64,000 nucleotides of DNA from a virus. Within the stretch, counting starts at the first letter, position 1; every line of letters begins with the position of its first letter. Under the pieces are notes generated by a model that saw only the letters and a program-made list of their open reading frames with translations, was not told where the DNA came from and made no database searches. Positions 10,585-62,253 of the stretch are shown here, piece by piece. The DNA is taken from positions 23,944-87,943 of the IMG/VR virus record IMGVR_UViG_3300005077_000747; one strand, given 5' to 3'. The position numbers and the translations under genes were made by a program.

Positions 10585-11205
10585 TTATGAGAGAAACTCC
10601 TTAAGTTGGGCGAGGCCGGAGCAAATTAGGCTGCGGACGCGTTGCTTTGAGAGCTTAAAACTCCCTGCTATATCGGCAATAGGTAACGCTTCGCAGCCTA
10701 GACCTGCATACATAATGATCATACGTTTAGTTCGAACGTCTAAATGTTCGAGTGCCTGCATTATTGAGACACGATTGATGACCATCTCTTCATGCGATAT
10801 TGAATCAGTGGTTGTAGAATTTTCGGCGGGGGTTTTTAAAAGAGGTAAGATAAGTGCAAATTCGGGAGACTCTTCATCGCCCTCTCCCCGTCGGATGCGA
10901 TTAACAGTTTTGTTTAGATTTAAGGGTACCCGACAGGGGAAACGAGTCTCGCGGATTACTTTGATCATTTCATGTTGGACCCAAGAAGTTGCAAACGAAA
11001 TAAATTTCGATTCACGGTTCTCGTCATACTTCTTGGCAGCTTTTAGTAAGCCCAACATCCCCGCGTTAACAAGATCTCCAAAAGGTACACCACTTGACGC
11101 GTACTTATTTGCCATAGAATAAACAAAACCCCTGTTATCGAGGACGAGGTTCTGTTCAATCTCCCGGCGAGTCAGCTCTGTCACAATATAATCCTCCCAT
11201 AACAC
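10585..11205 (-). CDS. sigma-70 family RNA polymerase sigma factor
   Basis: Region 2-like FISFATSWVQHEMIKVIRE and region 4 HTH IADIAGSFKLSKQRVRSL. Confidence 0.7.
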   Translation of the reverse strand: MLWEDYIVTELTRREIEQNLVLDNRGFVYSMANKYASSGVPFGDLVNAGMLGLLKAAKKYDENRESKFISFATSWVQHEMIKVIRETRFPCRVPLNLNKTVNRIRRGEGDEESPEFALILPLLKTPAENSTTTDSISHEEMVINRVSIMQALEHLDVRTKRMIIMYAGLGCEALPIADIAGSFKLSKQRVRSLICSGLAQLKEFLS

Positions 11206-13732: not shown

Positions 13733-13883
13733 AAATCCTCCTAATCGATGGTTAAAAAAATAATAAAGTGGTTTTGTTTCATAACTTAATTTGAATTGGA
13801 AACTGAGGAGGATTCAGTAAGAGAGAAAAATTCTTGGCGGTGAGTAAGAGATTTGAACTCCTAGAGCTATTACACTCGGCGAC

Positions 13884-14141
13884 TTAGCAAGCCGCTGCCT
13901 TTACCAATTCGGCCAACTCACCACTCCATGCAACTTTTGATACAGGGGAGGCGTTTGGAAGAGCCGTGAATACGAGAACTCTCTCTCCCTTCTCCTTGCT
14001 GAACTCTTTCAAATAAAGTTTAAACCCCTCATTATGCATATACTTAATAACAGTACTATCAAGAGTCTCATTTACGCCACTCGTGTGTGAATAATGAACT
14101 GCTACGCACAACCTAACCTCTGTTTGTACTAATGAATCCAT
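13884..14141 (-). CDS. hypothetical protein
   Basis: Minus ORF 85 aa. Confidence 0.4.
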   Translation of the reverse strand: MDSLVQTEVRLCVAVHYSHTSGVNETLDSTVIKYMHNEGFKLYLKEFSKEKGERVLVFTALPNASPVSKVAWSGELAELVKAAAC

Positions 14142-14152
14142 TTAATGTCTCC

Positions 14153-14344
14153 CTAAATTTGGTATTGACAATATTGGGAGCAGTAAGCAGGCAAGCATGG
14201 AGGCCTTTCTGCTACTACACATTGTACTCTCATAGTACATTCATTACAGTTTACAACGAATGGGAAATCAAGTCCACACCTTTCACAGTGCCCGGTCAAG
14301 TAAGTAAATTTACATTCCCGGTAAGTTGTCCCACTGAGCTGCAT
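14153..14344 (-). CDS. small Zn-ribbon protein, family variant
   Basis: CERCG...CNECTMRVQCV. Confidence 0.5.
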   Translation of the reverse strand: MQLSGTTYRECKFTYLTGHCERCGLDFPFVVNCNECTMRVQCVVAERPPCLPAYCSQYCQYQI

Positions 14345-14707
14345 CTATCCTTCCTTCTCGGCCTTCAACTCCTTGAGAAAGTCATTTAATTTCGCAATCC
14401 TTGCAGCCCACAACTCAGAAATTTCTGGGGCCAAAAAATCGTAGTGGATGGGGATCAAGGGTATATTATTTCCATCAACTGAAGTCCATTCAATAAACTT
14501 GTCGAGGAAATCTGCCTTCGGTGTTGGTTCATTCTTGAGAACTTTAACAGAGATAACTTTGAGGTCGGTCTCATGTAGAAACTCTCCCCATATATTTAGC
14601 GTCCACTCTTTTACATCTTCCGCAACTCCACCTTCAAAAAAGATGCGCTCAGTGTGAACTATATCACTATTGAGCCTGAACTTCACTTCAAACCATGTCT
14701 TACCCAT
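14345..14707 (-). CDS. hypothetical protein
   Basis: Minus ORF 120 aa. Confidence 0.5.
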   Translation of the reverse strand: MGKTWFEVKFRLNSDIVHTERIFFEGGVAEDVKEWTLNIWGEFLHETDLKVISVKVLKNEPTPKADFLDKFIEWTSVDGNNIPLIPIHYDFLAPEISELWAARIAKLNDFLKELKAEKEG

Positions 14708-14721
14708 AAAAACTCCTCAGT

Positions 14722-14799
14722 TGGCACCGAGGACAGGAGTCGAACCTGCATCATAAGGTTTTGGAGACCTCATCGCTAATCCTCAGGACATGCCCCGGC
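14722..14799 (-). tRNA. tRNA-Trp (anticodon CCA)
   Basis: Reverse complement GCCGGGG...GAGGTCTCCAAAACCTT...GCAGGTTCGACTCCTGT CCTCGGTGCCA. Anticodon arm matches bacterial tRNA-Trp; D-arm is non-canonical. Confidence 0.6.
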
Positions 14800-14825
14800 T
14801 CTTGTATTAATATTTCTTGACATTC

Positions 14826-15104
14826 CTACTCCATTTTCAATACTTTACTCTCGATTAAATTGCGGGCCATAATTCTTAATCCTTCTATCTCACAAGCGAG
14901 ACATGTATAACATGATTTAGTACAATCACCATGATGAGCAGGGTATCTCTCGTGCGCCTCTAAAAACTCTTTCTTCCACTTGGTGTTGTATAAGTATTCA
15001 ACATGCTCTTCATGCTTATCCGGGTCTTCAACATAATCACCAAGCCAATCAATTACCAATAGAAGCCCAGCGATTATATCTTCGAGTTCTTCGCTCTTAC
15101 TCAA
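14826..15104 (-). CDS. hypothetical protein
   Basis: Minus ORF 92 aa. Confidence 0.45.
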   Translation of the reverse strand: MSKSEELEDIIAGLLLVIDWLGDYVEDPDKHEEHVEYLYNTKWKKEFLEAHERYPAHHGDCTKSCYTCLACEIEGLRIMARNLIESKVLKME

Positions 15105-15309
15105 GTCTTAACACTCCTCTTTCTCTCAAGCGCCTGAGTAGATAGATTTGAGATTCAACACTAATGATGATACCCATACGAATGACATTGTTGAATGCAT
15201 TCGTCGTCTTGTCATTCATCAGCTCCTCAATCGGATCGCCTCCAGTATTTCCAATTAAATCCCTAAAAGGCTCCATCCACGCAGGCATAGTCCAATTTTC
15301 CCTACTCAT
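15097..15309 (-). CDS. hypothetical protein
   Basis: Minus ORF 70 aa. Confidence 0.4.
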   Translation of the reverse strand: MSRENWTMPAWMEPFRDLIGNTGGDPIEELMNDKTTNAFNNVIRMGIIISVESQIYLLRRLRERGVLRLE

Positions 15310-15337
15310 AGCTTGTCTCCTCTTAAGCCCTTTTGAA

Positions 15338-15414
15338 TGGTGATCCTGACGGGATTCAAACCCGTGTCACCAGATTGAAAGTCTCGTATCCTAACCAAGC
15401 TAGACGACAGGATC
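15338..15414 (-). tRNA. tRNA-Glu (anticodon UUC)
   Basis: rc GATCCTG...CGAGA CTTTCAA TCTGG...ACGGGTTTGAATCCCGT CAGGATC A CCA. Acceptor and T-arm clean; one G-G mismatch in anticodon stem. Confidence 0.55.
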
Positions 15415-15419
15415 ATTAA

Positions 15420-15498
15420 TGGCAGTCTGTACGGGATTTGAACCCGCGACCTCTGACTTGACAGGCTAGCGCTCTAGGCCAAACTGAGCTAACAGACT
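15420..15498 (-). tRNA. tRNA-Asp (anticodon GUC)
   Basis: rc AGTCTGT TA GCTCAGTTTGGCCTAGAGC ... CCTGTCAA ... GGTCGCGGGTTCAAATCCCGT ACAGACT G CCA. Close to the E. coli tRNA-Asp T-arm. Confidence 0.6.
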
Positions 15499-15676
15499 GT
15501 AAATCTAAAAATGGTAGTTGGTTATAATTCAGTCCTCTGATTGGTTCAGACTGTGAGTTATTGTGGACCCCCAACCAAGGCAACCCACCTTCACTCGCTA
15601 AGGTCAATAGCCCCATCGCACTGGGTTTAAGGCCTATTACCAAGCAGGTACTATATCTTCCACTCACGAGCTTAAC

Positions 15677-15751
15677 TGGCTGTGGCGGTAGGACTCGAAC
15701 CTACAACTCTTGGATTAACAGTCCAATACTCTGCCATTGAGTCACGCCACA
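15677..15751 (-). tRNA. tRNA-Asn (anticodon GUU)
   Basis: rc TGTGGCG TG ACTCAATGGCAGAGT A TTGGA CTGTTAA TCCAA GAGTT GTAGGTTCGAGTCCTAC CGCCACA G CCA. All stems pair. Confidence 0.8.
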
Positions 15752-15752
15752 A

Positions 15753-15959
15753 TTAAAAAGAACAATCAAGATTGATGCGGTGGGAGAGCGTAACTTCTCT
15801 GTTGTAACGTGCACAATCCCCATAATCGATGTACGTCTCCCCTTCCTTGAATTCGATGATATCTAATTCGTACTCGCCGCTATATAGTGGGAGATCTCCA
15901 TGTTCTTTGAACAATGCTTGGAGCTTAGTTATAGCCGATGAAAGTAGTATTGCGGGCAC
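15753..15959 (-). CDS. hypothetical protein
   Basis: Minus ORF 68 aa between tRNAs. Confidence 0.4.
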   Translation of the reverse strand: MPAILLSSAITKLQALFKEHGDLPLYSGEYELDIIEFKEGETYIDYGDCARYNREVTLSHRINLDCSF

Positions 15960-15973
15960 TATAAACTCCTAAT

Positions 15974-16059
15974 TGGCGGAAGGTGAAGGAGTCGAACCCT
16001 CATGTTTTACCATGGTCTGGTTTTCAAGACCAGTTGCCCACCGCTGAGCACCACCTTCC
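15974..16059 (-). tRNA. tRNA-Ser (anticodon UGA), class II
   Basis: rc GGAAGGT...CTGGT CTTGAAA ACCAG + long variable arm + GGTTCGACTCC...ACCTTCC G CCA. Close to E. coli tRNA-Ser(UGA). Confidence 0.8.
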
Positions 16060-16067
16060 ACAGTATC

Positions 16068-16820
16068 TTAAATCTTTTCAATGTAAGATTCTGCAAGGGA
16101 TTTAATCTTAGTGGCCTGATCTAATCCGTTGATACATCTCCTTGCATTGTAGAAATCACATTTATCCTGCTTGATATAATCCGATATCTTCCTACCTGTA
16201 AATGCTCCGGTTAGGAAGCCATGAACAAGTATGAATAATGAAGTTTCAGGATCGAGGGCGAGATTTGGATCTTTATCAAGATCAATTCCAAGAATACGTC
16301 CATACTGCCGGTAGTTATTGTACCAAGTTAATTGCACATATCCTCTACCATAGTAAGGATAGTATCTCAGATTTGCTTTACGCCAGGCGTCAGCATTCTT
16401 ACCCTTCCAGTAAGCTTCTTCAACTGGCTTTAACGTGCCGGCAGTTTCCCAATGCGCCGTAGCAACAACATAAGCCTTCTGTGTATTCAATCTTAATCCA
16501 AATCGATCGCAGCATTTCGCGATCGATTTAATGACATCATCCTTTGTATCAAAGCAATACTCAGCATGTATGTCGCTAACGCACTGCTGCAGTTTTGTTA
16601 CGGCTTCGAGTGTTACTAATTTAGGATTCCCGAAATAATAGTCAGCACAAAACTCGGCCCAAGCTGCTCGAGTCTTCGGGCCTATATCCCCGTCAACGTT
16701 TCCGCTAGGGAGTCCCAGGAAGTTCAACGCCCTCTGAATATCTTCCAGTTCGCAGGACAGAAGATCTTCCAGTTCAGTCGTTGCAGCTAATTCTGAAATA
16801 TGACTCAAATCAATTTTCAT
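16068..16820 (-). CDS. endolysin: N-terminal peptidoglycan-binding domain + GH19 (chitinase/lysozyme-like) catalytic domain
   Basis: PG_binding_1-like LNFLGLPSGNVDGDIGPKTRAAW; GH19 signature GRGYVQLTWYNNY. Confidence 0.7.
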   Translation of the reverse strand: MKIDLSHISELAATTELEDLLSCELEDIQRALNFLGLPSGNVDGDIGPKTRAAWAEFCADYYFGNPKLVTLEAVTKLQQCVSDIHAEYCFDTKDDVIKSIAKCCDRFGLRLNTQKAYVVATAHWETAGTLKPVEEAYWKGKNADAWRKANLRYYPYYGRGYVQLTWYNNYRQYGRILGIDLDKDPNLALDPETSLFILVHGFLTGAFTGRKISDYIKQDKCDFYNARRCINGLDQATKIKSLAESYIEKI

Positions 16821-16990
16821 GTTCTCCTCCTCACCAGATCATACACCGCTCCACACTCCGGGCATATGAGCACTGGTCGCCCTTCCAATATCCTCGGCTG
16901 TAATACCCCATACCCACATGGTGGATACTGAAAATTATCACGACACGAGCAATGCAACACCCCATTCGCAAATACCGGCATACCGCTCAT
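16817..16990 (-). CDS. small Cys-containing protein translationally coupled (ATGA) to endolysin
   Basis: Hand translation MSGMPVFANGVLHCSCRDNF...LICPECGAVYDLVRRRT. Stop overlaps the endolysin ATG; start overlaps the upstream gene's stop. Confidence 0.35.
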   Translation of the reverse strand: MSGMPVFANGVLHCSCRDNFQYPPCGYGVLQPRILEGRPVLICPECGAVYDLVRRRT

Positions 16991-17127
16991 GGTTCCTTAC
17001 CATCCTTATTTAAAACTCGTCTGAGCCACTCAATACACTCTGGGCATCCAGCTAAAGAGCAAACATCACACTTATACCAAGACTCAGAAAACTTCTGCAT
17101 TCCTCTTGAGCATCTCGGGCATAACAT
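16987..17127 (-). CDS. small Zn-ribbon protein (46 aa)
   Basis: MLCPRCSRGMQKFSESWYKCDVCSLAGCPEC... Longer ORF-track call 16987..17322 overlaps tRNA-Tyr, so the start is taken at internal Met. Confidence 0.45.
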   Translation of the reverse strand: MLCPRCSRGMQKFSESWYKCDVCSLAGCPECIEWLRRVLNKDGKEP

Positions 17128-17135
17128 TTTATCAG

Positions 17136-17222
17136 TGGTGGGGAAGGAAGGATTCGAACCTCCACGCTCATCAGCGACTACTGGGTTACAGCCAGGTGCG
17201 TTAGCCTTTCCGCCACTTCCCC
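17136..17222 (-). tRNA. tRNA-Tyr (anticodon GUA), class II with long variable arm
   Basis: rc GGGGAAG...CTGTAAC...long variable arm...GGTTCGAATCCTTCC TTCCCC A CCA. Bacterial-type Tyr tRNA. Confidence 0.8.
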
Positions 17223-17615: not shown

Positions 17616-17868
17616 TGGAGCCCAGCATAGGTTCAAGTTGAACGTTAAAATCCGCCTCAGGGCGGGAGTCAGAATCTGTCGCACGATGGAAGGGCTGTTG
17701 GCCAAAGCCAGTTACAACTTCATGCCCACACTTCGGACATACATAGAGATCGGCACTCACTGTGTAATAATAAGAACCATCTCTAATATGACACGCAAGA
17801 TCGACTCCATTCTTCTTGGGTCTCATAGGGATACAACATACAGCACATACTAAGGTTGGCATTTCCAT
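17608..17868 (-). CDS. small Zn-ribbon protein
   Basis: CAVCC...C...CPKCGHEV. Confidence 0.45.
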   Translation of the reverse strand: MEMPTLVCAVCCIPMRPKKNGVDLACHIRDGSYYYTVSADLYVCPKCGHEVVTGFGQQPFHRATDSDSRPEADFNVQLEPMLGSNA

Positions 17869-17894
17869 GACTCCCGCTCCGAAGTTAAAAGTGT

Positions 17895-20040: not shown

Positions 20041-21273
20041 CTAATACTCCATTGTTCTCGAATTTAACTTCATTCGAATTGTGTGACCCCAAGGCATATT
20101 ATCAGGAGCATCCGGTGTAAGTACCCAAACTATTTCTGGATCTGGGGGCCCGTGATGAAGGTCTCCTACATAGCCATCTGTAAGACAGATAATCTGTTCA
20201 CACTCCGGATAGTTTTCAGCAATATGAGCGAATGATGTCTGAAACATTGTACCGCCTCCCCCTTTAACCTTTGGAGGCGTTCCTTCATACACATATTCTC
20301 GTTGTAATTTTGCATCAACTTCGAATATGTGGATTAAGTATCCAATCCTTGCTAATTGCTCCACAACATTAAAACAGGCTCCGATTTCTTTAGGGCCCAT
20401 AGATCCTGAAGTATCAACTATTAAAAACAGCTTCCCTAGGTAGTCATGAATAACCCCCGGGATTGTATCATACCTCTTCGAGAATCTTCTCTTAGTGAAA
20501 GTCCATTCTTCCGAAAGTTCTGCTCTTTGGGCGGCTCGCAGGAATTCAAGTTTCCAATCGACTTCGGCTCTTACTTTATACAACTCTCCAAGAGCTCCCC
20601 CAGGATCTGTACCTGCAGCTTTAGCCGTAGCATACAATCTCCCGGAAAGCTCTTCAGCTTCAGTCTCTGAAACCTTTATTTCCCACTTATGATTCTGGCC
20701 GGCACCGTGTCTCTTGTCTTTATTGTCTCCTTTACCATCACCTTTACCATCACCAGCTTTGCCTTGCTGTTTTTTATTGTTCCCATTATTTCCACCCCCG
20801 TTTCCCTCTTTTTGGTGCTGCTGTTTCATTAATTGGTGAAGGTACCACTCGTAAGTACGATCCCAATCAAGGTTGAAGCTGGATGGAGTAAGTGCATGCT
20901 CAGGAAGGGGGAGGCTAGAGTGGCGCTGGAGGAAGCTATTAACAGCTAAATCCATTGCAAGATTTTTCACATCGGTCAACTGCTTCCCAGCTCTTGTAGG
21001 GTGCTGGAATAGAAAGTGTGCAACTTCGTGCAGCATGATAAATCGCTGATTGGTATAACTAATTTCCTTGTCAAAGAATTTGTCACCCAATCTAACCGTC
21101 AAACATTCATCAACAAGCAAACCAGCCGTCTCAACTTCTTTTGACCGAACGAAGCGACAACAAGCAAATACATGCCCAAAGAAAGGAAACTCTTTCGTAA
21201 GCCGCATTGAAATACGCCTCACTGCGAGACGTTCTTGATGGTTTAAAGCAGTGTCCGCCATTCTCCCTCCCAA
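20041..21273 (-). CDS. VWA-domain protein with N-terminal HExxH metallopeptidase-like domain (DUF2201-like; copy 1)
   Basis: HEVAHFLFQH; MIDAS-like DTSGSM; paralogue of 60971..62149. Confidence 0.65.
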   Translation of the reverse strand: MGGRMADTALNHQERLAVRRISMRLTKEFPFFGHVFACCRFVRSKEVETAGLLVDECLTVRLGDKFFDKEISYTNQRFIMLHEVAHFLFQHPTRAGKQLTDVKNLAMDLAVNSFLQRHSSLPLPEHALTPSSFNLDWDRTYEWYLHQLMKQQHQKEGNGGGNNGNNKKQQGKAGDGKGDGKGDNKDKRHGAGQNHKWEIKVSETEAEELSGRLYATAKAAGTDPGGALGELYKVRAEVDWKLEFLRAAQRAELSEEWTFTKRRFSKRYDTIPGVIHDYLGKLFLIVDTSGSMGPKEIGACFNVVEQLARIGYLIHIFEVDAKLQREYVYEGTPPKVKGGGGTMFQTSFAHIAENYPECEQIICLTDGYVGDLHHGPPDPEIVWVLTPDAPDNMPWGHTIRMKLNSRTMEY

Positions 21274-23489: not shown

Positions 23490-23522
23490 GATTCCCCCCA
23501 ACCATTGATTTATTTTTATTAT

Positions 23523-23553
23523 ATTATAATGGCTTAAAGGGCTAAAAATCAAT
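23523..23553 (-). promoter_or_regulatory. sigma70-type promoter (TTGATT-18-TATAAT) with conserved AGCC-N6-AGCCAT spacer
   Basis: Minus-sense GCATTGATTTTTAGCCCTTTAAGCCATTATAATAT. Confidence 0.55.
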
Positions 23554-23606
23554 GCTTAATTAAATGGCTTTTAAAAATTCAAGACATTTAGAATCGTAGG
23601 CTGTTA

Positions 23607-24182
23607 TTATCCCATCTTAGAAGTTTCGTTCAAATCTTCAACTGGAACTAAACATCTATCCCGAGCGGCTTCCAAATGGACAATAGCGTCAGTGAGTGAT
23701 TGATGCTCATTCGGAAACAGCTCCGAAAAGCCTGGAACTTTTTTAGACACTCTTGAGAGACATCCACAAAGTGTTGAAAGAAGCTTGCTTAGGATAGATC
23801 TAAAGTGAGTCCCATTAAAGAAGGCGAGATCAAATTGATCTGCCTCAGTAATCAAAAACGTTGTTTGTGCTTTAAGAACAGTGCTTGTTAAAGTACCTAC
23901 AGGTGGGCAGGCATCTCCTCGAATAGGAATACACGTTACGTGAAATGTATACTCTGTCTTGCATTTAAAACATTTAAACCTTCGCGCATTCCAGCCGGTT
24001 CTTGCAAAACCTACAAGTGGGACTCTGATATGAGTCCCACAATCAGGACAAACAAAATTGACTCGAAACTGCCCACCCCGATTCCCCTTCCTTCTTCCAT
24101 TGTTGTAAGAAGCGTGTGAGTTCATTTTTAGAAAATACCTTTCTAGGCTGGAACAATCGGGGCAAGGTTTGGGAATCTGCAA
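23607..24182 (-). CDS. Cys-rich hypothetical protein (191 aa)
   Basis: CPDC, CPDCG, CFKCK, C..C pairs. Confidence 0.5.
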   Translation of the reverse strand: MQIPKPCPDCSSLERYFLKMNSHASYNNGRRKGNRGGQFRVNFVCPDCGTHIRVPLVGFARTGWNARRFKCFKCKTEYTFHVTCIPIRGDACPPVGTLTSTVLKAQTTFLITEADQFDLAFFNGTHFRSILSKLLSTLCGCLSRVSKKVPGFSELFPNEHQSLTDAIVHLEAARDRCLVPVEDLNETSKMG

Positions 24183-38683: not shown

Positions 38684-38694
38684 TTTTTTATTTT

Positions 38695-38725
38695 TATTAT
38701 AAGTGCTCTTTGGGCTGAAAATAAA
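38695..38725 (-). promoter_or_regulatory. sigma70-type promoter (TTTATT-18-TATAAT) with AGCC..AGC spacer
   Basis: Minus-sense GCGTTTATTTTCAGCCCAAAGAGCACTTATAATAAAAATAAAAAA GTG. Confidence 0.5.
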
Positions 38726-38776
38726 CGCTGATTAAAATGGCTCCACAAAAAATCCATGCAGCCTAGGCTGAGAGTC

Positions 38777-43859: not shown

Positions 43860-43895
43860 CGTCCCACCTGCAAAATAATGTTTTATTTTTGATTA

Positions 43896-43927
43896 TATTA
43901 TAATGGCTCAAAAGGCTAAAAATCAAG
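43896..43927 (-). promoter_or_regulatory. sigma70-type promoter (TTGATT-18-TATAAT) with AGCC..AGCCAT spacer
   Basis: Minus-sense GCCTTGATTTTTAGCCTTTTGAGCCATTATAATAT. Confidence 0.55.
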
Positions 43928-43952
43928 GCAAAATAAAATGGCTTTTAAAAAT

Positions 43953-48279: not shown

Positions 48280-48379
48280 GATACTTCCTCCTTAGGAGCT
48301 TTACCGGCTTAGCCGGTTTATTTTTATCCCCACTAAGTGGGGTTGGTACGCTAACCTTAATTCCTTCATTTTTGATTTT

Positions 48380-48410
48380 ATTATAAATGCCCAAATGGCT
48401 TTTTTTCAAC
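48380..48410 (-). promoter_or_regulatory. sigma70-type promoter copy 1 (TTGAAA-18-TATAAT)
   Basis: Minus-sense GCGTTGAAAAAAAGCCATTTGGGCATTTATAAT. Confidence 0.55.
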
Positions 48411-48502
48411 GCTGAAAAAGAGGGGATCCTAAATTTCGTTTCAATAAATCCCCTTGCCCTCAATTACGTCCCCCCATCTTTAATTCCTTCATTTTTGATT
48501 TT

Positions 48503-48533
48503 ATTATAAATGCCCAAATGGCTTTTTTTCAAC
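48503..48533 (-). promoter_or_regulatory. sigma70-type promoter copy 2 (TTGAAA-18-TATAAT)
   Basis: Duplicate of 48380..48410. Confidence 0.55.
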
Positions 48534-48580
48534 GCTGAAAAAGATGGCTTTTTAATTTCCATTTGAATCCCCGGCTTGTG

Positions 48581-54097: not shown

Positions 54098-54117
54098 TTG
54101 TATCCTCTTTTATTTTT

Positions 54118-54148
54118 ATTATAATGGCTTTTTGGGCTGAAAATAAAG
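54118..54148 (-). promoter_or_regulatory. sigma70-type promoter (TTTATT-18-TATAAT) with AGCC..AGCCAT spacer, heads the tandem Zn-ribbon array
   Basis: Minus-sense CCACTTTATTTTCAGCCCAAAAAGCCATTATAATAAAAATAAAAGAGGATACAAATG. Confidence 0.55.
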
Positions 54149-54282
54149 TGGAAATAAAAAGGCTAAATAAAAAATGTATCAATGTCGGCTAAAAGGCTTT
54201 TGGAAGTTTGCACAAGTTCAAGGCACAAAATAAAATGGGGACCCTAATGGGTCCCCTATCGGTCCCAACACCTTTGCCTTTC

Positions 54283-55316: not shown

Positions 55317-55540
55317 TTAGTCCCTCCTACGGGTAAGACATTTAACTCGATGTTTACATACATCACACGCATCCATCTTCTCATCAACGTTATGTTACAC
55401 CGATCACAACTCATCATACACATTGGATTACCATCATACCACTCTTCAAAGAAGAGTGACTTTGTTGTCTTACATTCTGGACAAGTAACACCAAGATACT
55501 CCGCAGACAAAATATGTTCCTTAAAATTAAACTCTGACAT
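55313..55540 (-). CDS. small Zn-ribbon protein
   Basis: CPECK...CDRC. Confidence 0.45.
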   Translation of the reverse strand: MSEFNFKEHILSAEYLGVTCPECKTTKSLFFEEWYDGNPMCMMSCDRCNITLMRRWMRVMYVNIELNVLPVGGTK

Positions 55541-55770
55541 TACTCGTTCTCACCATCTCTAAGTGTCCAATCTTTCCAATCGCCCTCTGTCGTTATAGTA
55601 ATTGGCGGTTTCGCCACGCAACTAAGACGTGACTTACATTCGTCACACTTCTCTGTCCATCGTACAAACAACGTCTTACAACCCAAACAAAAAAAGGAAT
55701 TCGGACAGGCCGGAGAGGCAACTATAGTCTGTTCACATTTAGGACAGGCATCTTTAAAGAAGACCGGCAT
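55540..55770 (-). CDS. small Zn-ribbon protein, family
   Basis: CPKCE...CLGCK...CDECKSRLSCVAKPPIT. Confidence 0.55.
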   Translation of the reverse strand: MPVFFKDACPKCEQTIVASPACPNSFFCLGCKTLFVRWTEKCDECKSRLSCVAKPPITITTEGDWKDWTLRDGENE

Positions 55771-55891
55771 TAGTTACTTGAACTCCGTATAGCACGTTCA
55801 TTACTATCTTAACGTAGGTTTGATGGACAAGTAAGTTTGTAGTAACCAAGATCCAACTAATCAATCCACCCTCTCGTATGAAACGTTTCAT
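55754..55891 (-). CDS. 45-aa hydrophobic small protein
   Basis: Hand-translated MKRFIREGGLISWILVTTNLLVHQ...; RBS AAGGGGG. Confidence 0.3.
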   Translation of the reverse strand: MKRFIREGGLISWILVTTNLLVHQTYVKIVMNVLYGVQVTNAGLL

Positions 55892-55925
55892 GGTACCCCC
55901 TTATAATGAAACATCTTTTGTTTTT

Positions 55926-55956
55926 ATTATAAGGGCTCCTTTGGCTAAAAATAAAG
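55926..55956 (-). promoter_or_regulatory. sigma70-type promoter (TTTATT-18-TATAAT) with AGCC..AGCC spacer
   Basis: Minus-sense CACTTTATTTTTAGCCAAAGGAGCCCTTATAAT. Confidence 0.5.
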
Positions 55957-56206
55957 TGAGAAAAAGAGGGCTCAAAAATTTTTGGATCATACCCACTAAA
56001 AATCGGGGTAAAAAATTTTTGACGTGCAGTTTTTTAGGTGCGGACCTTCCTAGGGATTTGTATAATTGACCCACTAAAATTGGTCCGCGAATTTGGAGAG
56101 AGCTATCCCCGGCCCTATGCGGCGGCGAGCGTGATTGTATATTGTTCGACCGTATCGGGGGAGACCCAAATCCAACTTGCTTATGGCTAATAAATCGCTA
56201 GCACAA

Positions 56207-56572
56207 TTAAAGGGGACAATAGACCAAGGCGGCTCCATGCCAATCTCTCCATAGGCTTAAGGCTAAAAAATCATAGTTCCTTTGCACAATAAGCAGGAGA
56301 GGTTGAATGGGTAGCTTCCGACGATACCTTTGCTCGGCAGACACTAAGTTAAAGATACCTTGATCAACCGCACCATTAACTAACGTACCTGCGGTAACAT
56401 TAACTTTACGTTTCTCTGCTACCTTAAGTATACGTAACATATAGATACGGAACTTAGAGAATGCACTATTCTCATCACGGGTACGAGAACCGGTAGTACG
56501 AGGTTCGATTAACTGTTCGAACAAAGCCTCGTCTTCATCTACCACGTTTACTTCTTTGTTAGTCTCGGTCAT
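56207..56572 (-). CDS. paralogue-A family small protein (C-terminal extent uncertain)
   Basis: EDEALFEQLIE...RDENSAFSKFR...VAEKR...GAVDQGIFNLVSAEQRYRR shared with 62781..63362. Confidence 0.5.
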   Translation of the reverse strand: MTETNKEVNVVDEDEALFEQLIEPRTTGSRTRDENSAFSKFRIYMLRILKVAEKRKVNVTAGTLVNGAVDQGIFNLVSAEQRYRRKLPIQPLLLIVQRNYDFLALSLWRDWHGAALVYCPL

Positions 56573-57263
56573 GGTTTAATGCCTCCTTGTTTGTTTTCAT
56601 TTTTGATTATATTATAACGGCTCCATAAGGACCAAAGCAAGTCGAAAAATGAGGGGTCATTAATTTTCGTATCGACTCCGGCCCGGCTTATGGATTACTT
56701 AGTCAATGCTAAATTTAATGGCTGAATTAGAAGGGCTGTGGATGAATAAGACGCTGCACAAGAAGAAGGCTAAATTTAAAGGGACGGCTCATCTGCCTTT
56801 GGGTTTTGCACAATTAAATGGGACAATAGATCGGTAAGGGATGCCGGCTGAGCTGTCTTTGCCCAATTAAATGGGACAATAGGAAAGGTTCGTCGATGTA
56901 CGTCTTAATGCTGACTAATACAGATAGAGTGGCCCGGCGTTGTACGGATGAGAAGAGGGGACCTAGAATGGCAAGTATATGGTCTGACTAAATGGAGAGG
57001 ACTAGCCCCCGGGGCGGGGCGTGGAATAGGAAGCTGGACGCTGGAAGAGTGGGAGTTAAAAACCGGCGGGCCTGCAAGTTAAGGAAGTTGGATGTTAAAG
57101 ACGAAGCGTCTCAAAGGCTGCAGGAGCTCGAAGCCACTTAAAGACAAGGCCTTCCTGTAAATCAATAAGTGGTTAATAGAAACAGCCTAGACGTATTCAT
57201 CTAGCCTGAAGCTCTAGTAGGGAGAAGGGTCGTCCTTAACCCTTCTCCAACTACAAATTCAGA
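56573..57263 (-). other. 691-bp non-coding island (GC-richer, structured; possible ncRNA or iteron/origin-like region)
   Basis: No ORF >=60 aa on either strand. 19-bp motif CAATTAAA[TG]GGGACAATAG at 56811 and 56864 (plus 56204). Stem-loops include GGAGAAGGGT-N8-ACCCTTCTCC at 57222..57249. Confidence 0.5.
56611..56641 (-). promoter_or_regulatory. sigma70-type promoter (TTGCTT-18-TATAAT)
   Basis: Minus-sense GACTTGCTTTGGTCCTTATGGAGCCGTTATAATATAAT...AAGGAGG..ATG. Confidence 0.5.
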
Positions 57264-57575
57264 TTAGGTTAGCGGGTCTTCATCGATCCACTCTTTCTCA
57301 AGTATGTCTTCCTGCTCATCCATATCGAAGACGTAGTGAGACCTTTCAAAGTGGGCACTCTCAATTACAAAGTTGCCATCATTCCTTAAAACCAGTTCGA
57401 TCGACACACTGCATACCTCTGTACGGTCGTCCTCAGGGCATACAGTGTGATCAATGCTAATGTCAATAATCCCCCCATCGAAAAGATCAACGCCCTTTGT
57501 GGTCAGCACTTTGACCGCGGCCGCAATTGCTTCTGCAATCGCATCTGCTAATGGTTTTGGTTGGAACTCTCTCAT
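57264..57575 (-). CDS. hypothetical acidic protein
   Basis: Minus ORF 103 aa. Confidence 0.45.
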   Translation of the reverse strand: MREFQPKPLADAIAEAIAAAVKVLTTKGVDLFDGGIIDISIDHTVCPEDDRTEVCSVSIELVLRNDGNFVIESAHFERSHYVFDMDEQEDILEKEWIDEDPLT

Positions 57576-57590
57576 CGTACTCTCCTTTGG

Positions 57591-58199
57591 TTAATCGTTA
57601 ACTAAATTGTTCCATAGGTTATGAAGCTCACTACCATACATAACCGTACCGATAAGGATGTCATGCTTTTTCAATAGCCACGCCTGGATGGCGGCATTTA
57701 AAGTGCTTCCCGAAACTGAAACGCCACAGCAGGTGTTAGATCCAATCTCACCCAATGCCAAGCTAACCCCAACAGGGACTTTAGAGTCCTCATCATGAAA
57801 TTCTATTTGGGGTTCGAATCCGAGTTGCTTGAAACGTGCTACAATCAACTCAAGCCGTTTGGACTCATTGAACAACGAACTTGGAGTCTTAAGTTGATTG
57901 AGAAACTCGACATCGGCAATCAGGAAGCAATCTGTCGCATGTGCAGGGTAGAGAAAGTAGTCGGCCTTCCAAAGGTTGGCATCGTTGAGAGTGTAGAAGT
58001 AGTTGGGAGGAGTCTTAATCTCGATGTCATATAAAACTTCATCACACTCAACCAACAGGATCTCAACGCACGACATAACTTCATCCACGGGGATTCCCTC
58101 TCCAAAGTCACTCCTTAACCCTGTTGCAACTAAATCATAGAAGCAGGATCCAGAAAGGCAATTAACTTTTCGGATTGGGCAGGTCTCACAATCTCTCAT
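57591..58199 (-). CDS. protein with N-terminal family motif + larger domain
   Basis: MRDCETCPIRKVNCLSGSC... Confidence 0.5.
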   Translation of the reverse strand: MRDCETCPIRKVNCLSGSCFYDLVATGLRSDFGEGIPVDEVMSCVEILLVECDEVLYDIEIKTPPNYFYTLNDANLWKADYFLYPAHATDCFLIADVEFLNQLKTPSSLFNESKRLELIVARFKQLGFEPQIEFHDEDSKVPVGVSLALGEIGSNTCCGVSVSGSTLNAAIQAWLLKKHDILIGTVMYGSELHNLWNNLVND

Positions 58200-60970: not shown

Positions 60971-62149
60971 TTATTTGTTTACTCCGCGCATACGGAGAGT
61001 CGTTGCCCAGTCAGGCAGGTTAGCATGGCTATCTTCAGTGAGGACGATCAATACCGACTTCAGGCCAGCAGGAATGCCTCCGCTCACATCAAAGATGTAC
61101 CCATCAGTCAGGATAATCACTTCTTGCATCTCAGGGAAACCTTCTTGGACTTTCACAATGGCTTCGCGAAACATTGTCCCGCCACCTCCATGAACTTTCG
61201 GAGGTGTGCCGGTGTAGATATAACTATCATGAAGTGCAGCATCAACTTCATGAACCCAGATGCGGTAGCCCATAAGATGAAGTTTATGTATGATGCTGAA
61301 ACAGGCACCGATCTCTTTATTAGACATCGACCCTGAAGTATCTACCATGATGTGAACCTCCCCCTGATAATCATGCTTAGCTCCAGGAGGTATAGAATAT
61401 CTTCGGGAGGTATGACGCTTACAGAAACGCCAGTCTTCGCTTTGCTCCGATGACTGAGCATAAGTAATGAACTGGTCTTTCCAATCGACGTCAGCAGTAG
61501 TTTTGTATAGATCTCGAAGTGCTCCACTGGGAGCCGTCCCCGCCATCTTGCATGCTCCCTCAAAGAGGTTGCGCGCAAGTCCCTCAGCTTCTATCTCAGG
61601 GACGTCGACCTTCCAGAAGTGCTCCGGAACTTCAACTTCGAATTCCTCATCCGTCTGACTGCCACCTTTCGAAGGATCTCCCTTCCCATCCCCTTTGACC
61701 TTAACTTTAATCTTCTTAGTAGGGAGGTTTGAAAGGTACCACTCATACGTTTTGTTCTTATCCAACTTGAACTGAGACGGCATAAGAACAAATTCCGGTT
61801 CGTGGATGTGGCAGGCATCTGAAAGGAAGGAGTTGGTTGCTAAGTCCATGGCGATGTTATTAATCATATGGGACCTATCAGCCCCCGCATTCCTAGCTCG
61901 CCAAGGGTGCTTAAACAAGAAGTGGGCAATCTCGTGCATAAGAATGTACCTCTGATCGGCTTCCTTATACTCAAAGAACTCATCAGGGTTAATTACGATG
62001 CACAAGCTTTCACGGACAATCATTCCCGCAGGTGCTGGGAGATCCTTTTCAAAAGACCAAGTACACACTGCGAGGACGTGACCGAAGAAAGGTCGTTGCT
62101 CTAGAAGATTCATTACGAGCCTACGAATCTTCTTTCGATCCTCACTCAT
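60971..62149 (-). CDS. VWA-domain + HExxH (DUF2201-like) protein (copy 2)
   Basis: HEIAHFLFKH; DTSGSM; paralogue of 20041..21273; immediately precedes MoxR-2. Confidence 0.65.
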   Translation of the reverse strand: MSEDRKKIRRLVMNLLEQRPFFGHVLAVCTWSFEKDLPAPAGMIVRESLCIVINPDEFFEYKEADQRYILMHEIAHFLFKHPWRARNAGADRSHMINNIAMDLATNSFLSDACHIHEPEFVLMPSQFKLDKNKTYEWYLSNLPTKKIKVKVKGDGKGDPSKGGSQTDEEFEVEVPEHFWKVDVPEIEAEGLARNLFEGACKMAGTAPSGALRDLYKTTADVDWKDQFITYAQSSEQSEDWRFCKRHTSRRYSIPPGAKHDYQGEVHIMVDTSGSMSNKEIGACFSIIHKLHLMGYRIWVHEVDAALHDSYIYTGTPPKVHGGGGTMFREAIVKVQEGFPEMQEVIILTDGYIFDVSGGIPAGLKSVLIVLTEDSHANLPDWATTLRMRGVNK

Positions 62150-62188
62150 TCGTATCCCCCTTGTATTTATAAATATTTATACAATTAT

Positions 62189-62220
62189 ATTATAAAGGCT
62201 TTTTGAGGGGACAAAAAAGT
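62189..62220 (-). promoter_or_regulatory. sigma70-type promoter (TTTTTT-18-TATAAT)
   Basis: Minus-sense CCACTTTTTTGTCCCCTCAAAAAGCCTTTATAATATAAT. Confidence 0.45.
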
Positions 62221-62253
62221 GGAAATAAAATTGCCCCCTCAAAAAAGCGTACA

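Follow-up and report, generated by a model that had tools for sequence, protein, structure and literature searches.

Introduction

In iteron-based replicons such as those of P1 (incC-repA-incA), F (oriS-repE-incC), and V. cholerae (ori2/RctB), co-oriented repeats of approximately 19 to 22 bp flank a winged-helix (WH)-type gene, with iterons being situated near the initiator gene and accompanied by titration arrays (PMC6090056). A regulator gene flanked by clusters of ~17- to 20-bp sites is also known from the lambda immunity region, where the OL and OR operator triplets on either side of cI are looped by the repressor, while in the T5 injection stop signal (iss) numerous repeats occupy an untranslated region that is conserved (bioRxiv 10.1101/866236). 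Here, we describe a locus which shares features with each of these systems and which is located at positions 55771 to 57263 of a 64,000-nucleotide (nt) stretch of viral DNA (IMG/VR record IMGVR_UViG_3300005077_000747, positions 23,944 to 87,943; the whole stretch is hereafter referred to as the window). The locus consists of two non-coding islands which carry a bipartite repeat of ~20 bp and flank a gene for a predicted WH protein of 121 amino acids (aa). On the basis of its sequence and that of its relatives, we tentatively favor its interpretation as a cis-acting DNA region, the repeat arrays of which would bind a phage protein, probably the embedded WH protein, in order to control transcription.

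Searches of 50,697 GenBank phage records (blastn and tblastn) returned no DNA or protein match to the window. The clade to which this phage belongs is without a cultured or GenBank relative. The locus described here is its most conspicuous conserved non-coding feature and provides three handles on its early-expression or replication control, namely, an element defined to 20 bp, a protein that is a candidate for binding it, and a pair of additional invariant blocks. Systems of this kind have precedents; what is new is the element, the family to which the protein belongs, and the clade of phages. Should the arrays represent plain operators, the locus would constitute an ordinary, nicely conserved phage regulatory region.

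A co-oriented bipartite repeat in two non-coding islands

The original prediction, which was made from the window sequence, had reported a 19-bp motif, CAATTAAA[TG]GGGACAATAG, at three positions, and exactly these three copies are present (56204, 56811, and 56864, all on the + strand), each being extendable to 25 nt, with no other match in the 64 kb even when three mismatches are allowed (chance expectation, 0.03). This description is accurate but incomplete, as the full repeat set comprises the three exact copies and two degenerate units, all of which are oriented on the - (gene) strand. Four bipartite units form a tandem array at 56706 to 56882 (-), with a period of 53, 52, and 48 bp, upstream of the promoter of the 121-aa gene: unit 1 at 56859 to 56882 (the copy reported at 56864; position-weight-matrix score, 23.9), unit 2 at 56806 to 56829 (the copy reported at 56811; score, 26.6), unit 3 at 56754 to 56777 (score, 15.3), and unit 4 at 56706 to 56729 (score, 9.0). 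Unit 5, at 56198 to 56222 (-; the copy reported at 56204), attains the best score of the window (28.4) and overlaps the stop codon of the 121-aa gene together with the five codons preceding it. Each unit is composed of two half-sites of the TTGTSC/TTNAGC type, which are 13 bp apart and enclose an A/T-rich core (e.g., cTATTGTCCCATTTAATTGTGCAaa), and a lone half-site is found at approximately 56290 (-), within the divergent 3' part of the 121-aa open reading frame (ORF). Half-site matches in the region number 14 on the gene strand and 0 on the opposite strand, and the four best matrix scores of the window all fall within 56218 to 56878.

Related loci were obtained from one NCBI metagenome-assembled genome, JGI metagenomes, IMG/VR, and Logan assemblies by protein searches and contig look-ups, several of the recovered loci being near-duplicates of one another. 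The same plan is evident in every locus that harbors an A-type gene (an orthologue of the 121-aa gene, "paralogue A"): an upstream gene, a spacer, a promoter module, the gene of 112 to 121 aa, a strong terminator, a second spacer, a further promoter module, and a zinc-ribbon gene. This layout was found in L003, L004, L006, L008, L013, L016, L018, and L019, with spacers of 380 to 950 nt in those cases for which the data include both spacer ends; a terminator following the upstream gene is seen in L003, and hairpins occupy this place in the window and L004. The terminator following the 121-aa gene is absent from the window and present in the relatives.

In most related loci, the two non-coding islands flanking the orthologous gene contain 5 to 11 copies of a ~20-bp bipartite element, YSMYCC-nTTTAATTGTGCW, which are nearly always co-oriented and are spaced at 33 to 88 bp without helical phasing. 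A position-weight matrix was built from the window, L004, L006, and L008, with L013 and L016 kept out, and when applied to the latter two it produced 9 and 0 matches on the gene and opposite strands of L013, respectively, and 10 and 1 in L016; 9 of 9 and 9 of 11 of these (18 of 20 combined) are located in the flanking islands. The repeat of L003 is a diverged variant (TTTAATTWAGCC / TCATCCTTAAGCC). Absence of the motifs from related phages, which had been named in advance as part of what would refute the original prediction, was not observed. Conserved blocks within the spacers are 72 to 79% identical with invariant cores, compared to an identity of only ~67% between the coding DNA of the relatives and that of the window, and selection on the spacers is therefore implied. 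Part of the upstream island of the window (56674 to 56834) matches the downstream island of L004, from which it follows that duplication and rearrangement have taken place.

Several further interpretations of the motif were rejected. A miniature CRISPR, taken to require regular repeats of 28 to 37 bp, usually more than three, with unrelated spacers, was dismissed because the intervening sequences are mutually related (GGCTCATCTGCCTTTG versus GGCTGAGCTGTCTTTG) and the units are degenerate tandem copies, the 25-nt repeat occurring at the 53-bp spacing only twice. The + strand of the motif encodes AQL[KN]GTID, but a small peptide is not indicated, as the third copy is without an ORF and Shine-Dalgarno (SD) sequences are absent. 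A T7-like promoter or one of the extracytoplasmic function (ECF) type was likewise discarded, given that only three copies exist, all at the locus, and that no conserved -35 (GAAC-type) element is located upstream of the CGTCT motif. Exact-motif matches in IMG/VR (L001 and L002) lie inside an HNH endonuclease ORF (..TIKWDNR..) of an unrelated AT-rich phage and are ascribed to chance.

The embedded gene and its promoter modules

The gene at 56207 to 56572 (-) encodes a 121-aa protein, of which residues 12 to 85 share 67% identity with part of a 193-aa ORF at 62781 to 63362. The family is small and has no sequence match in Pfam, PHROG, or PDB. A structural model of the orthologue P0003 (pLDDT 77) places helices at residues 36 to 53, 61 to 70, and 79 to 96 and strands at residues 58 to 60, 101 to 106, and 109 to 114, and thus displays the helix-strand-helix-helix-hairpin (wing) topology. 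The top structural matches are all WH domains, many of them protein-binding WH domains, and the product is consequently predicted, by modeling, to be a WH protein. Its last 36 residues are divergent, and the corresponding DNA holds island-type motifs, including TTTAGCC/TTAAGCC at 56260 to 56267 within the 3' part of the gene; no frameshift that would restore the C terminus was found. One member of the family, P0004 (322 aa; JGI 3300075153, 2.5-kb contig), possesses extra sequence following the WH domain, in which an apparent repeat of the N-terminal part (MIVKQATSAAPAT...) is found, as well as a Cys-rich motif at the C terminus (CPACGGDGGPGGRCYKCDGSG).

Transcription of this gene is presumed to be directed by a ~75-nt module in which a T/A-rich upstream part is followed by a -35-like hexamer, GGAGCCnT, and TATAAT, and of which approximately 10 copies occur in the window, all on the - strand (nhmmer/HMM), in intergenic gaps upstream of genes where checked. 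Alignment of six modules revealed a TATAAT -10 hexamer, a -35-like hexamer at a distance of 17 to 18 bp, and an A/T-rich upstream part; by these sequence features, and by their position upstream of SD-preceded genes, the modules appear to be sigma70-type promoters. The module of the 121-aa gene is located at 56603 to 56677 (-), with the -10 TATAAT at 56611 to 56616 and TTGCTT as the -35-like hexamer (nhmmer E=3.5e-17). A second module at 55918 to 55993 (-) has its -10 at 55926 to 55931 (E=5.4e-18; GGAGCCCTTATAAT), and an extra copy of its A/T-rich part is present upstream at 55998 to 56021. The sequence ACCCACTAAAA, correctly noted in the original prediction as occurring twice (55991 and 56069), has a second copy between this module and the extra A/T-rich copy (55918 to 56021). 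Together with their 5' untranslated regions (UTRs), the two modules account for roughly 300 bp of the islands. Further copies of the module are found on the - strand at 54110 to 54182, 43889 to 43952, 38688 to 38751, 62184 to 62243, 23516 to 23577, 48372 to 48444, 48495 to 48549, and 29791 to 29854, and a weak match to the repeat element occurs at 54227, just upstream of the first of these.

At the upstream end of the locus, just downstream of a 103-aa gene, two hairpins are located at 57187 to 57248 (-), one at 57221 to 57248 and the other at 57187 to 57204, the latter being followed by GCTGTTTCTA. The former corresponds to the stem GGAGAAGGGT/ACCCTTCTCC, whose presence had been noted with coordinates one base off. 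The hairpins probably represent the terminator of the upstream operon, and L003 contains a clear intrinsic terminator at the matching position.

Proposed role of the arrays

Among the candidate functions suggested for the locus, that of binding sites for a phage regulator fits the sequence evidence, the element forming a conserved, co-oriented family of ~20 bp that is confined to the spacers around the predicted WH gene. The WH gene appears to have a strong sigma70-type promoter to itself and, in the relatives, is followed by its own terminator. Each spacer extends from a terminator to the next promoter and contains an array of co-oriented bipartite elements, in which two TGTSC-like half-sites 13 bp apart enclose the A/T-rich core. 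From these features we infer protein binding, the identity of the binder, and the regulatory outcome as follows. It is proposed that these arrays are occupied by a phage DNA-binding protein, most likely the embedded WH protein or else its paralogue encoded at 62781 to 63362, and that binding would proceed head to tail, in the manner of OmpR/PhoB-type WH proteins on direct repeats. The nucleoprotein complex formed in this way, in which the arrays on either side of the gene may be looped together, would determine how strongly the WH gene is expressed and would control the neighboring early promoter of the zinc-ribbon gene cluster.

Three observations weigh against this proposal. Firstly, the repeats do not overlap the -35 and -10 hexamers of the promoters, which renders simple promoter occlusion unlikely and means that looping or upstream activation must be assumed. 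Secondly, the putative recognition helix of the L003 protein is near-identical to that of its orthologues and the L003 repeat has nonetheless diverged, so that protein and site do not visibly co-vary. Thirdly, the wide range of repeat spacings described above is without helical phasing.

Single-copy conserved blocks

Besides the repeats, the islands contain two conserved single-copy blocks. The X core, a C-rich block of the form GCAGGCC..TTTTT..CCAGCTTCC..CGCCCCGCCCCG, is located at 57005 to 57078 (-) and was aligned in six lineages (the window, L003, L004, L013, L016, and L008). Block c (56064 to 56141, -) consists of TATACAATCACGC, 20 variable nt, GGGATAG, a single variable nucleotide, and GGACCAATTTTAGKGGGTCA; it is single copy in the window, occurs in every related lineage with invariant spacing, and opens with an invariant -10-like TATACAAT. 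A start codon follows it immediately in L003, L007/L008, L013, and L016, as does TTG in L006; its G-run is positioned like an SD sequence, and the genes that follow it are not all mutually related. Block c is accordingly read, from its sequence and placement, as a conserved promoter/leader/translation-initiation cassette. No ORF follows it in the window and L004, where it may fire into the next promoter region. In L003, a second gene has the 3' part of block c (GGACCAAATTTTGGGGGGTCAATTATG; 17837 to 17870) as its translation-initiation region, and similar extra copies of this part are present in L013 (3578 to 3604) and L014 (2136 to 2162). Four matches to the block c pattern in genome contigs were all antisense of a conserved Flavobacteriia coding gene and were rejected as chance occurrences.

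The islands could in principle be non-functional debris, in which decaying duplicates of promoter modules and gene ends have accumulated and the repeats persist through recent tandem duplication only. The match between 56674 to 56834 and the downstream island of L004 is in keeping with such a history, as are the promoter-like fragments in the islands (TTTAGCC and the A/T-rich upstream copies), the lack of an ORF downstream of block c in the window and L004, and the fact that all three exact copies of the motif end in a reading frame for YCP(L/I)-stop, like the 3' end of the gene itself. We nevertheless consider this explanation improbable, since the element is multi-copy and co-oriented in lineages whose coding DNA has diverged to the extent given above, the promoter modules do not score with the repeat matrix, and the cores of both the X core and block c, with their spacing, are invariant across lineages.

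Neither block shows RNA covariation. The consensus structure of the X core (RNAalifold, six sequences) amounts to -0.4 and -3.5 kcal/mol, i.e., none, and consensus folding of block c across 10 sequences likewise produced an energy near zero and no covariation-supported structure, its small hairpin being broken without compensation in L004, L014, and L015. A long-range stem enclosing TATACAATCACGC, which was present with 5 sequences, disappeared with 10. Since the conserved blocks retain sequence and exact spacing rather than base pairing, they resemble protein-binding DNA.

A non-coding RNA, be it a long structured RNA as envisaged in the original prediction, a small RNA arising from block c, or an unstructured C/U-rich (antisense purine-rich) protein-sponge RNA, is consequently judged highly improbable. 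In its favor are the strand-asymmetric composition of the islands in all lineages, with C exceeding G on the gene strand, the invariant -10-like sequence at the start of block c, and the abundance of GGA on the + strand. On the other hand, an Rfam scan of the whole window at gathering thresholds detected only tRNAs, and a relaxed scan of 55600 to 57400 (E<=10) returned only noise, with nothing above 17.5 bits and nothing below an E value of 0.4. Minimum free energy (MFE) z-scores relative to dinucleotide shuffles were computed on both strands (the comparison covering 11 of 12 rows); those of the 572-nt island were -1.2 and 0.0, those of the 196-nt island were -1.0 and -0.75, and they thus give no excess folding stability. 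GGA occurs 20 times on the + strand of the 572-nt island compared to 16.4+-2.7 in shuffled sequence, and falls below expectation in L003 and L004; as it is not enriched over shuffles, a CsrA-type sponge RNA transcribed from the + strand is not indicated. Each array, furthermore, is preceded by a terminator and followed by a promoter, and the + strand of island 2 (the island upstream of the 121-aa gene) yielded no sigma70-like promoter.

Possible replication origin and other possible DNA-level roles

The main rival to the proposed transcriptional control is an iteron-type origin or replication-control locus, in which the WH protein would act as initiator, one array would serve as the origin and the other in titration or handcuffing, and the strong promoters would provide transcriptional activation. 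In this case, the arrays and the single-domain WH protein would together make up a minimal initiator-iteron (or handcuffing/timer) system of a type not described before, which would serve a large, uncultured phage clade. Either claim is regarded here as possible but doubtful. The origin is retained as the main rival, rather than as the leading reading, because of counterevidence concerning the protein, the spacing, the DnaA boxes, and the skew. The iteron-type character of the repeats, which the original prediction had listed among its candidates, fits the evidence: direct repeats of ~20 bp are co-oriented on both sides of the WH gene in most related loci (as a diverged variant in L003), and the five units of the window and 5 to 11 per related locus agree with the several direct repeats of ~17 to 22 bp that accompany the initiator gene of an iteron-type origin. 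The conserved G+C-rich X core adjoins the arrays. A comparison of GC skew in seven lineages, in which the flanks of L004 were too short to judge, produced gene-strand values of -0.02 to +0.09 upstream and +0.09 to +0.25 downstream of the locus in six of the seven, and such a rise is the polarity expected at an origin.

That an actual origin resides here is not borne out by the remaining evidence. The protein offers a single WH domain in 112 to 121 aa rather than the two of Rep-family initiators, without a Rep-family Pfam match and with no Rep protein among its top structural matches, and the irregular spacing (48 to 53 bp in the window, 33 to 88 bp overall) differs from the regular 10 to 23 bp, or roughly one to two helical turns, of head-to-tail origin iterons. 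DnaA boxes number 0 to 1 per locus at <=1 mismatch and are not conserved, although the box of the host could differ, and no separate AT-rich unwinding element is apparent, the most A/T-rich 40-mers being promoter and 5' UTR segments. The gene for a DnaB-like helicase is 53 kb away. In L003, the cumulative GC-skew minimum lies ~9 kb upstream, at a divergent transcription switch, while the skew step at the locus coincides with a GC-content and gene-module boundary, which could itself explain the step. If the locus were nonetheless an origin or timing device run by a 112-aa single winged helix, it would represent an unusually small initiator or regulator system.

The R repeats in cosB are bound by lambda Nu1, a WH protein, and the tubC iterons are bound by TubR. 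A role of the locus in genome entry (as a pause resembling the T5 injection stop signal), packaging, or partition, with participation of the small WH protein, would be compatible with such precedents, with the conservation of a large, untranslated, repeat-rich region across the relatives, and with its position at the boundary between a GC-richer upstream block and a block in which small genes of early type, equipped with strong promoters, are numerous. The vicinity, however, revealed no terminase, no ParA/ParM/TubZ-type NTPase, and no terminal repeat, and the DnaA boxes proposed as a hallmark of the T5 iss are not conserved at the locus, leaving this alternative with little likelihood.

Coding content and composition of the gene-poor stretch

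The gene-poor nature of 55771 to 57263 was confirmed, as no ORF exceeding 63 aa is present besides the 121-aa gene. The statement that the islands contain no ORF of 60 aa or more does not hold for island 1 (the downstream island), in which a 63-aa ORF occupies 55878 to 56069 (+); this ORF is probably spurious, because it reads across the promoter. On the - strand, a 45-aa ORF at 55754 to 55891 is preceded by an SD sequence (AAGGGGG, 4 nt before the ATG) and overlaps the start of the zinc-ribbon gene (55540 to 55770). By its sequence, it is probably a small gene or leader ORF, and no homologue was detected in the related loci. The inverted repeat GCGGACC...GGTCCGC, with a 35-nt loop, is present at 56040 to 56088 (neither strand being assigned), as had been noted, and overlaps the 3' end of block c; it shows no conservation in the related loci.

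An elevated GC content, which had been attributed to the islands, was not observed: island 1 has a GC content of 0.406 compared to 0.409 for the 2 kb to its left, and island 2 has a value of 0.456, the 2 kb to its right having 0.465. GC content changes stepwise at the locus. The unusual property of the islands is their strand composition: read on the gene strand, they contain more C than G and more T than A, opposite to the genes (G>C), and their skew toward C ranges from -0.10 to -0.24 in all lineages. In the window, L003, L013, L016, L006, and L008, the locus constitutes a compositional boundary, the 1 to 6 kb upstream having a higher GC content and a gene-strand GC skew near zero, and the sequence downstream having a lower GC content (clear in the window, L003, and L013) and a higher skew.

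Genomic context

All genes of the window are located on the - strand, and the window looks like a section of a large phage genome. Among its products are two helicases (one DnaB-like, the other SNF2), two DUF2201 proteins, an ECF-like sigma factor, and seven tRNAs. The sigma factor is specified by 10585 to 11205 (-), a gene for a 206-aa sigma-70 family protein of ECF-like size with regions 2 and 4 only, and the phage therefore has its own sigma factor. The seven clustered tRNA genes (13835 to 17222, -) are those for Ser (two), Trp, Glu, Asp, Asn, and Tyr, two of which were reported by ARAGORN only, both being missed by the Rfam gathering scan. An 853-aa protein encoded at 30705 to 33266 (-) strongly matches the shoulder domain of the major vault protein (E=3.6e-30) and has, in addition, a Vault_3 repeat and weak SPFH/Band-7 similarity, a composition that is uncommon in phage. 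The DUF2201 genes (20041 to 21273 and 60971 to 62149, -) are a paralogous pair with metallopeptidase-like and VWA-like parts, and that at 60971 to 62149 is syntenic with 11735 to 12928 of L003.

Upstream of island 2, the adjoining 103-aa and 202-aa genes (57264 to 58199, -) have no counterpart at the L003 position and no PHROG match, and tblastn with the 103-aa protein returned nothing from any fetched related locus; the two genes look like an insertion specific to the window phage. Further upstream, a perfect 14-bp inverted repeat, CTTGGATTATAATT...AATTATAATCCAAG around TTAGCCTCAGCCTT, is located at 63472 to 63513, upstream of the gene for the 193-aa paralogue. As each strand bears an outward-facing TATAAT, the repeat has the appearance of two divergent promoters, and it corresponds to the L003 strand switch at ~7 kb, the cumulative GC-skew minimum.

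Comparison with known systems

The locus resembles the iteron replicons of P1, F, and V. cholerae (PMC6090056) in its co-oriented repeats of similar length on both sides of a WH-type gene, in the possession of a promoter by that gene, and in the conserved G+C-rich block nearby. It differs from them in that the protein is a single small WH domain without a Rep signature, the spacing is irregular, conserved DnaA boxes and a separate unwinding element are lacking, and the element is bipartite with a 13-bp period. The T5 injection stop signal is likewise a large, conserved, untranslated, and repeat-dense phage region beside early genes (bioRxiv 10.1101/866236), but it is part of the terminal repeat and is defined by conserved DnaA boxes, palindromes, and inverted repeats (bioRxiv 10.1101/866236), whereas the repeats described here are direct and the locus has no conserved DnaA boxes.

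With the lambda immunity region, the locus shares a regulator gene flanked by site clusters that are several hundred base pairs apart, an arrangement allowing looping and autoregulation. The lambda operators, however, are palindromic and overlap divergent promoters, while the elements of this locus are direct, adopt one orientation, avoid the -35 and -10 hexamers, and lie among genes which all run one way. The structure of the element itself can be likened to the pho box of OmpR/PhoB-type proteins, which is similarly bipartite, with two short direct TGTSC-like half-sites and an A/T-rich spacer; this likeness is put forward as an analogy, given that the half-sites of the pho box have a period of 11 bp rather than 13 bp and that the WH protein of the present phage has neither a receiver domain nor sequence similarity to such proteins.

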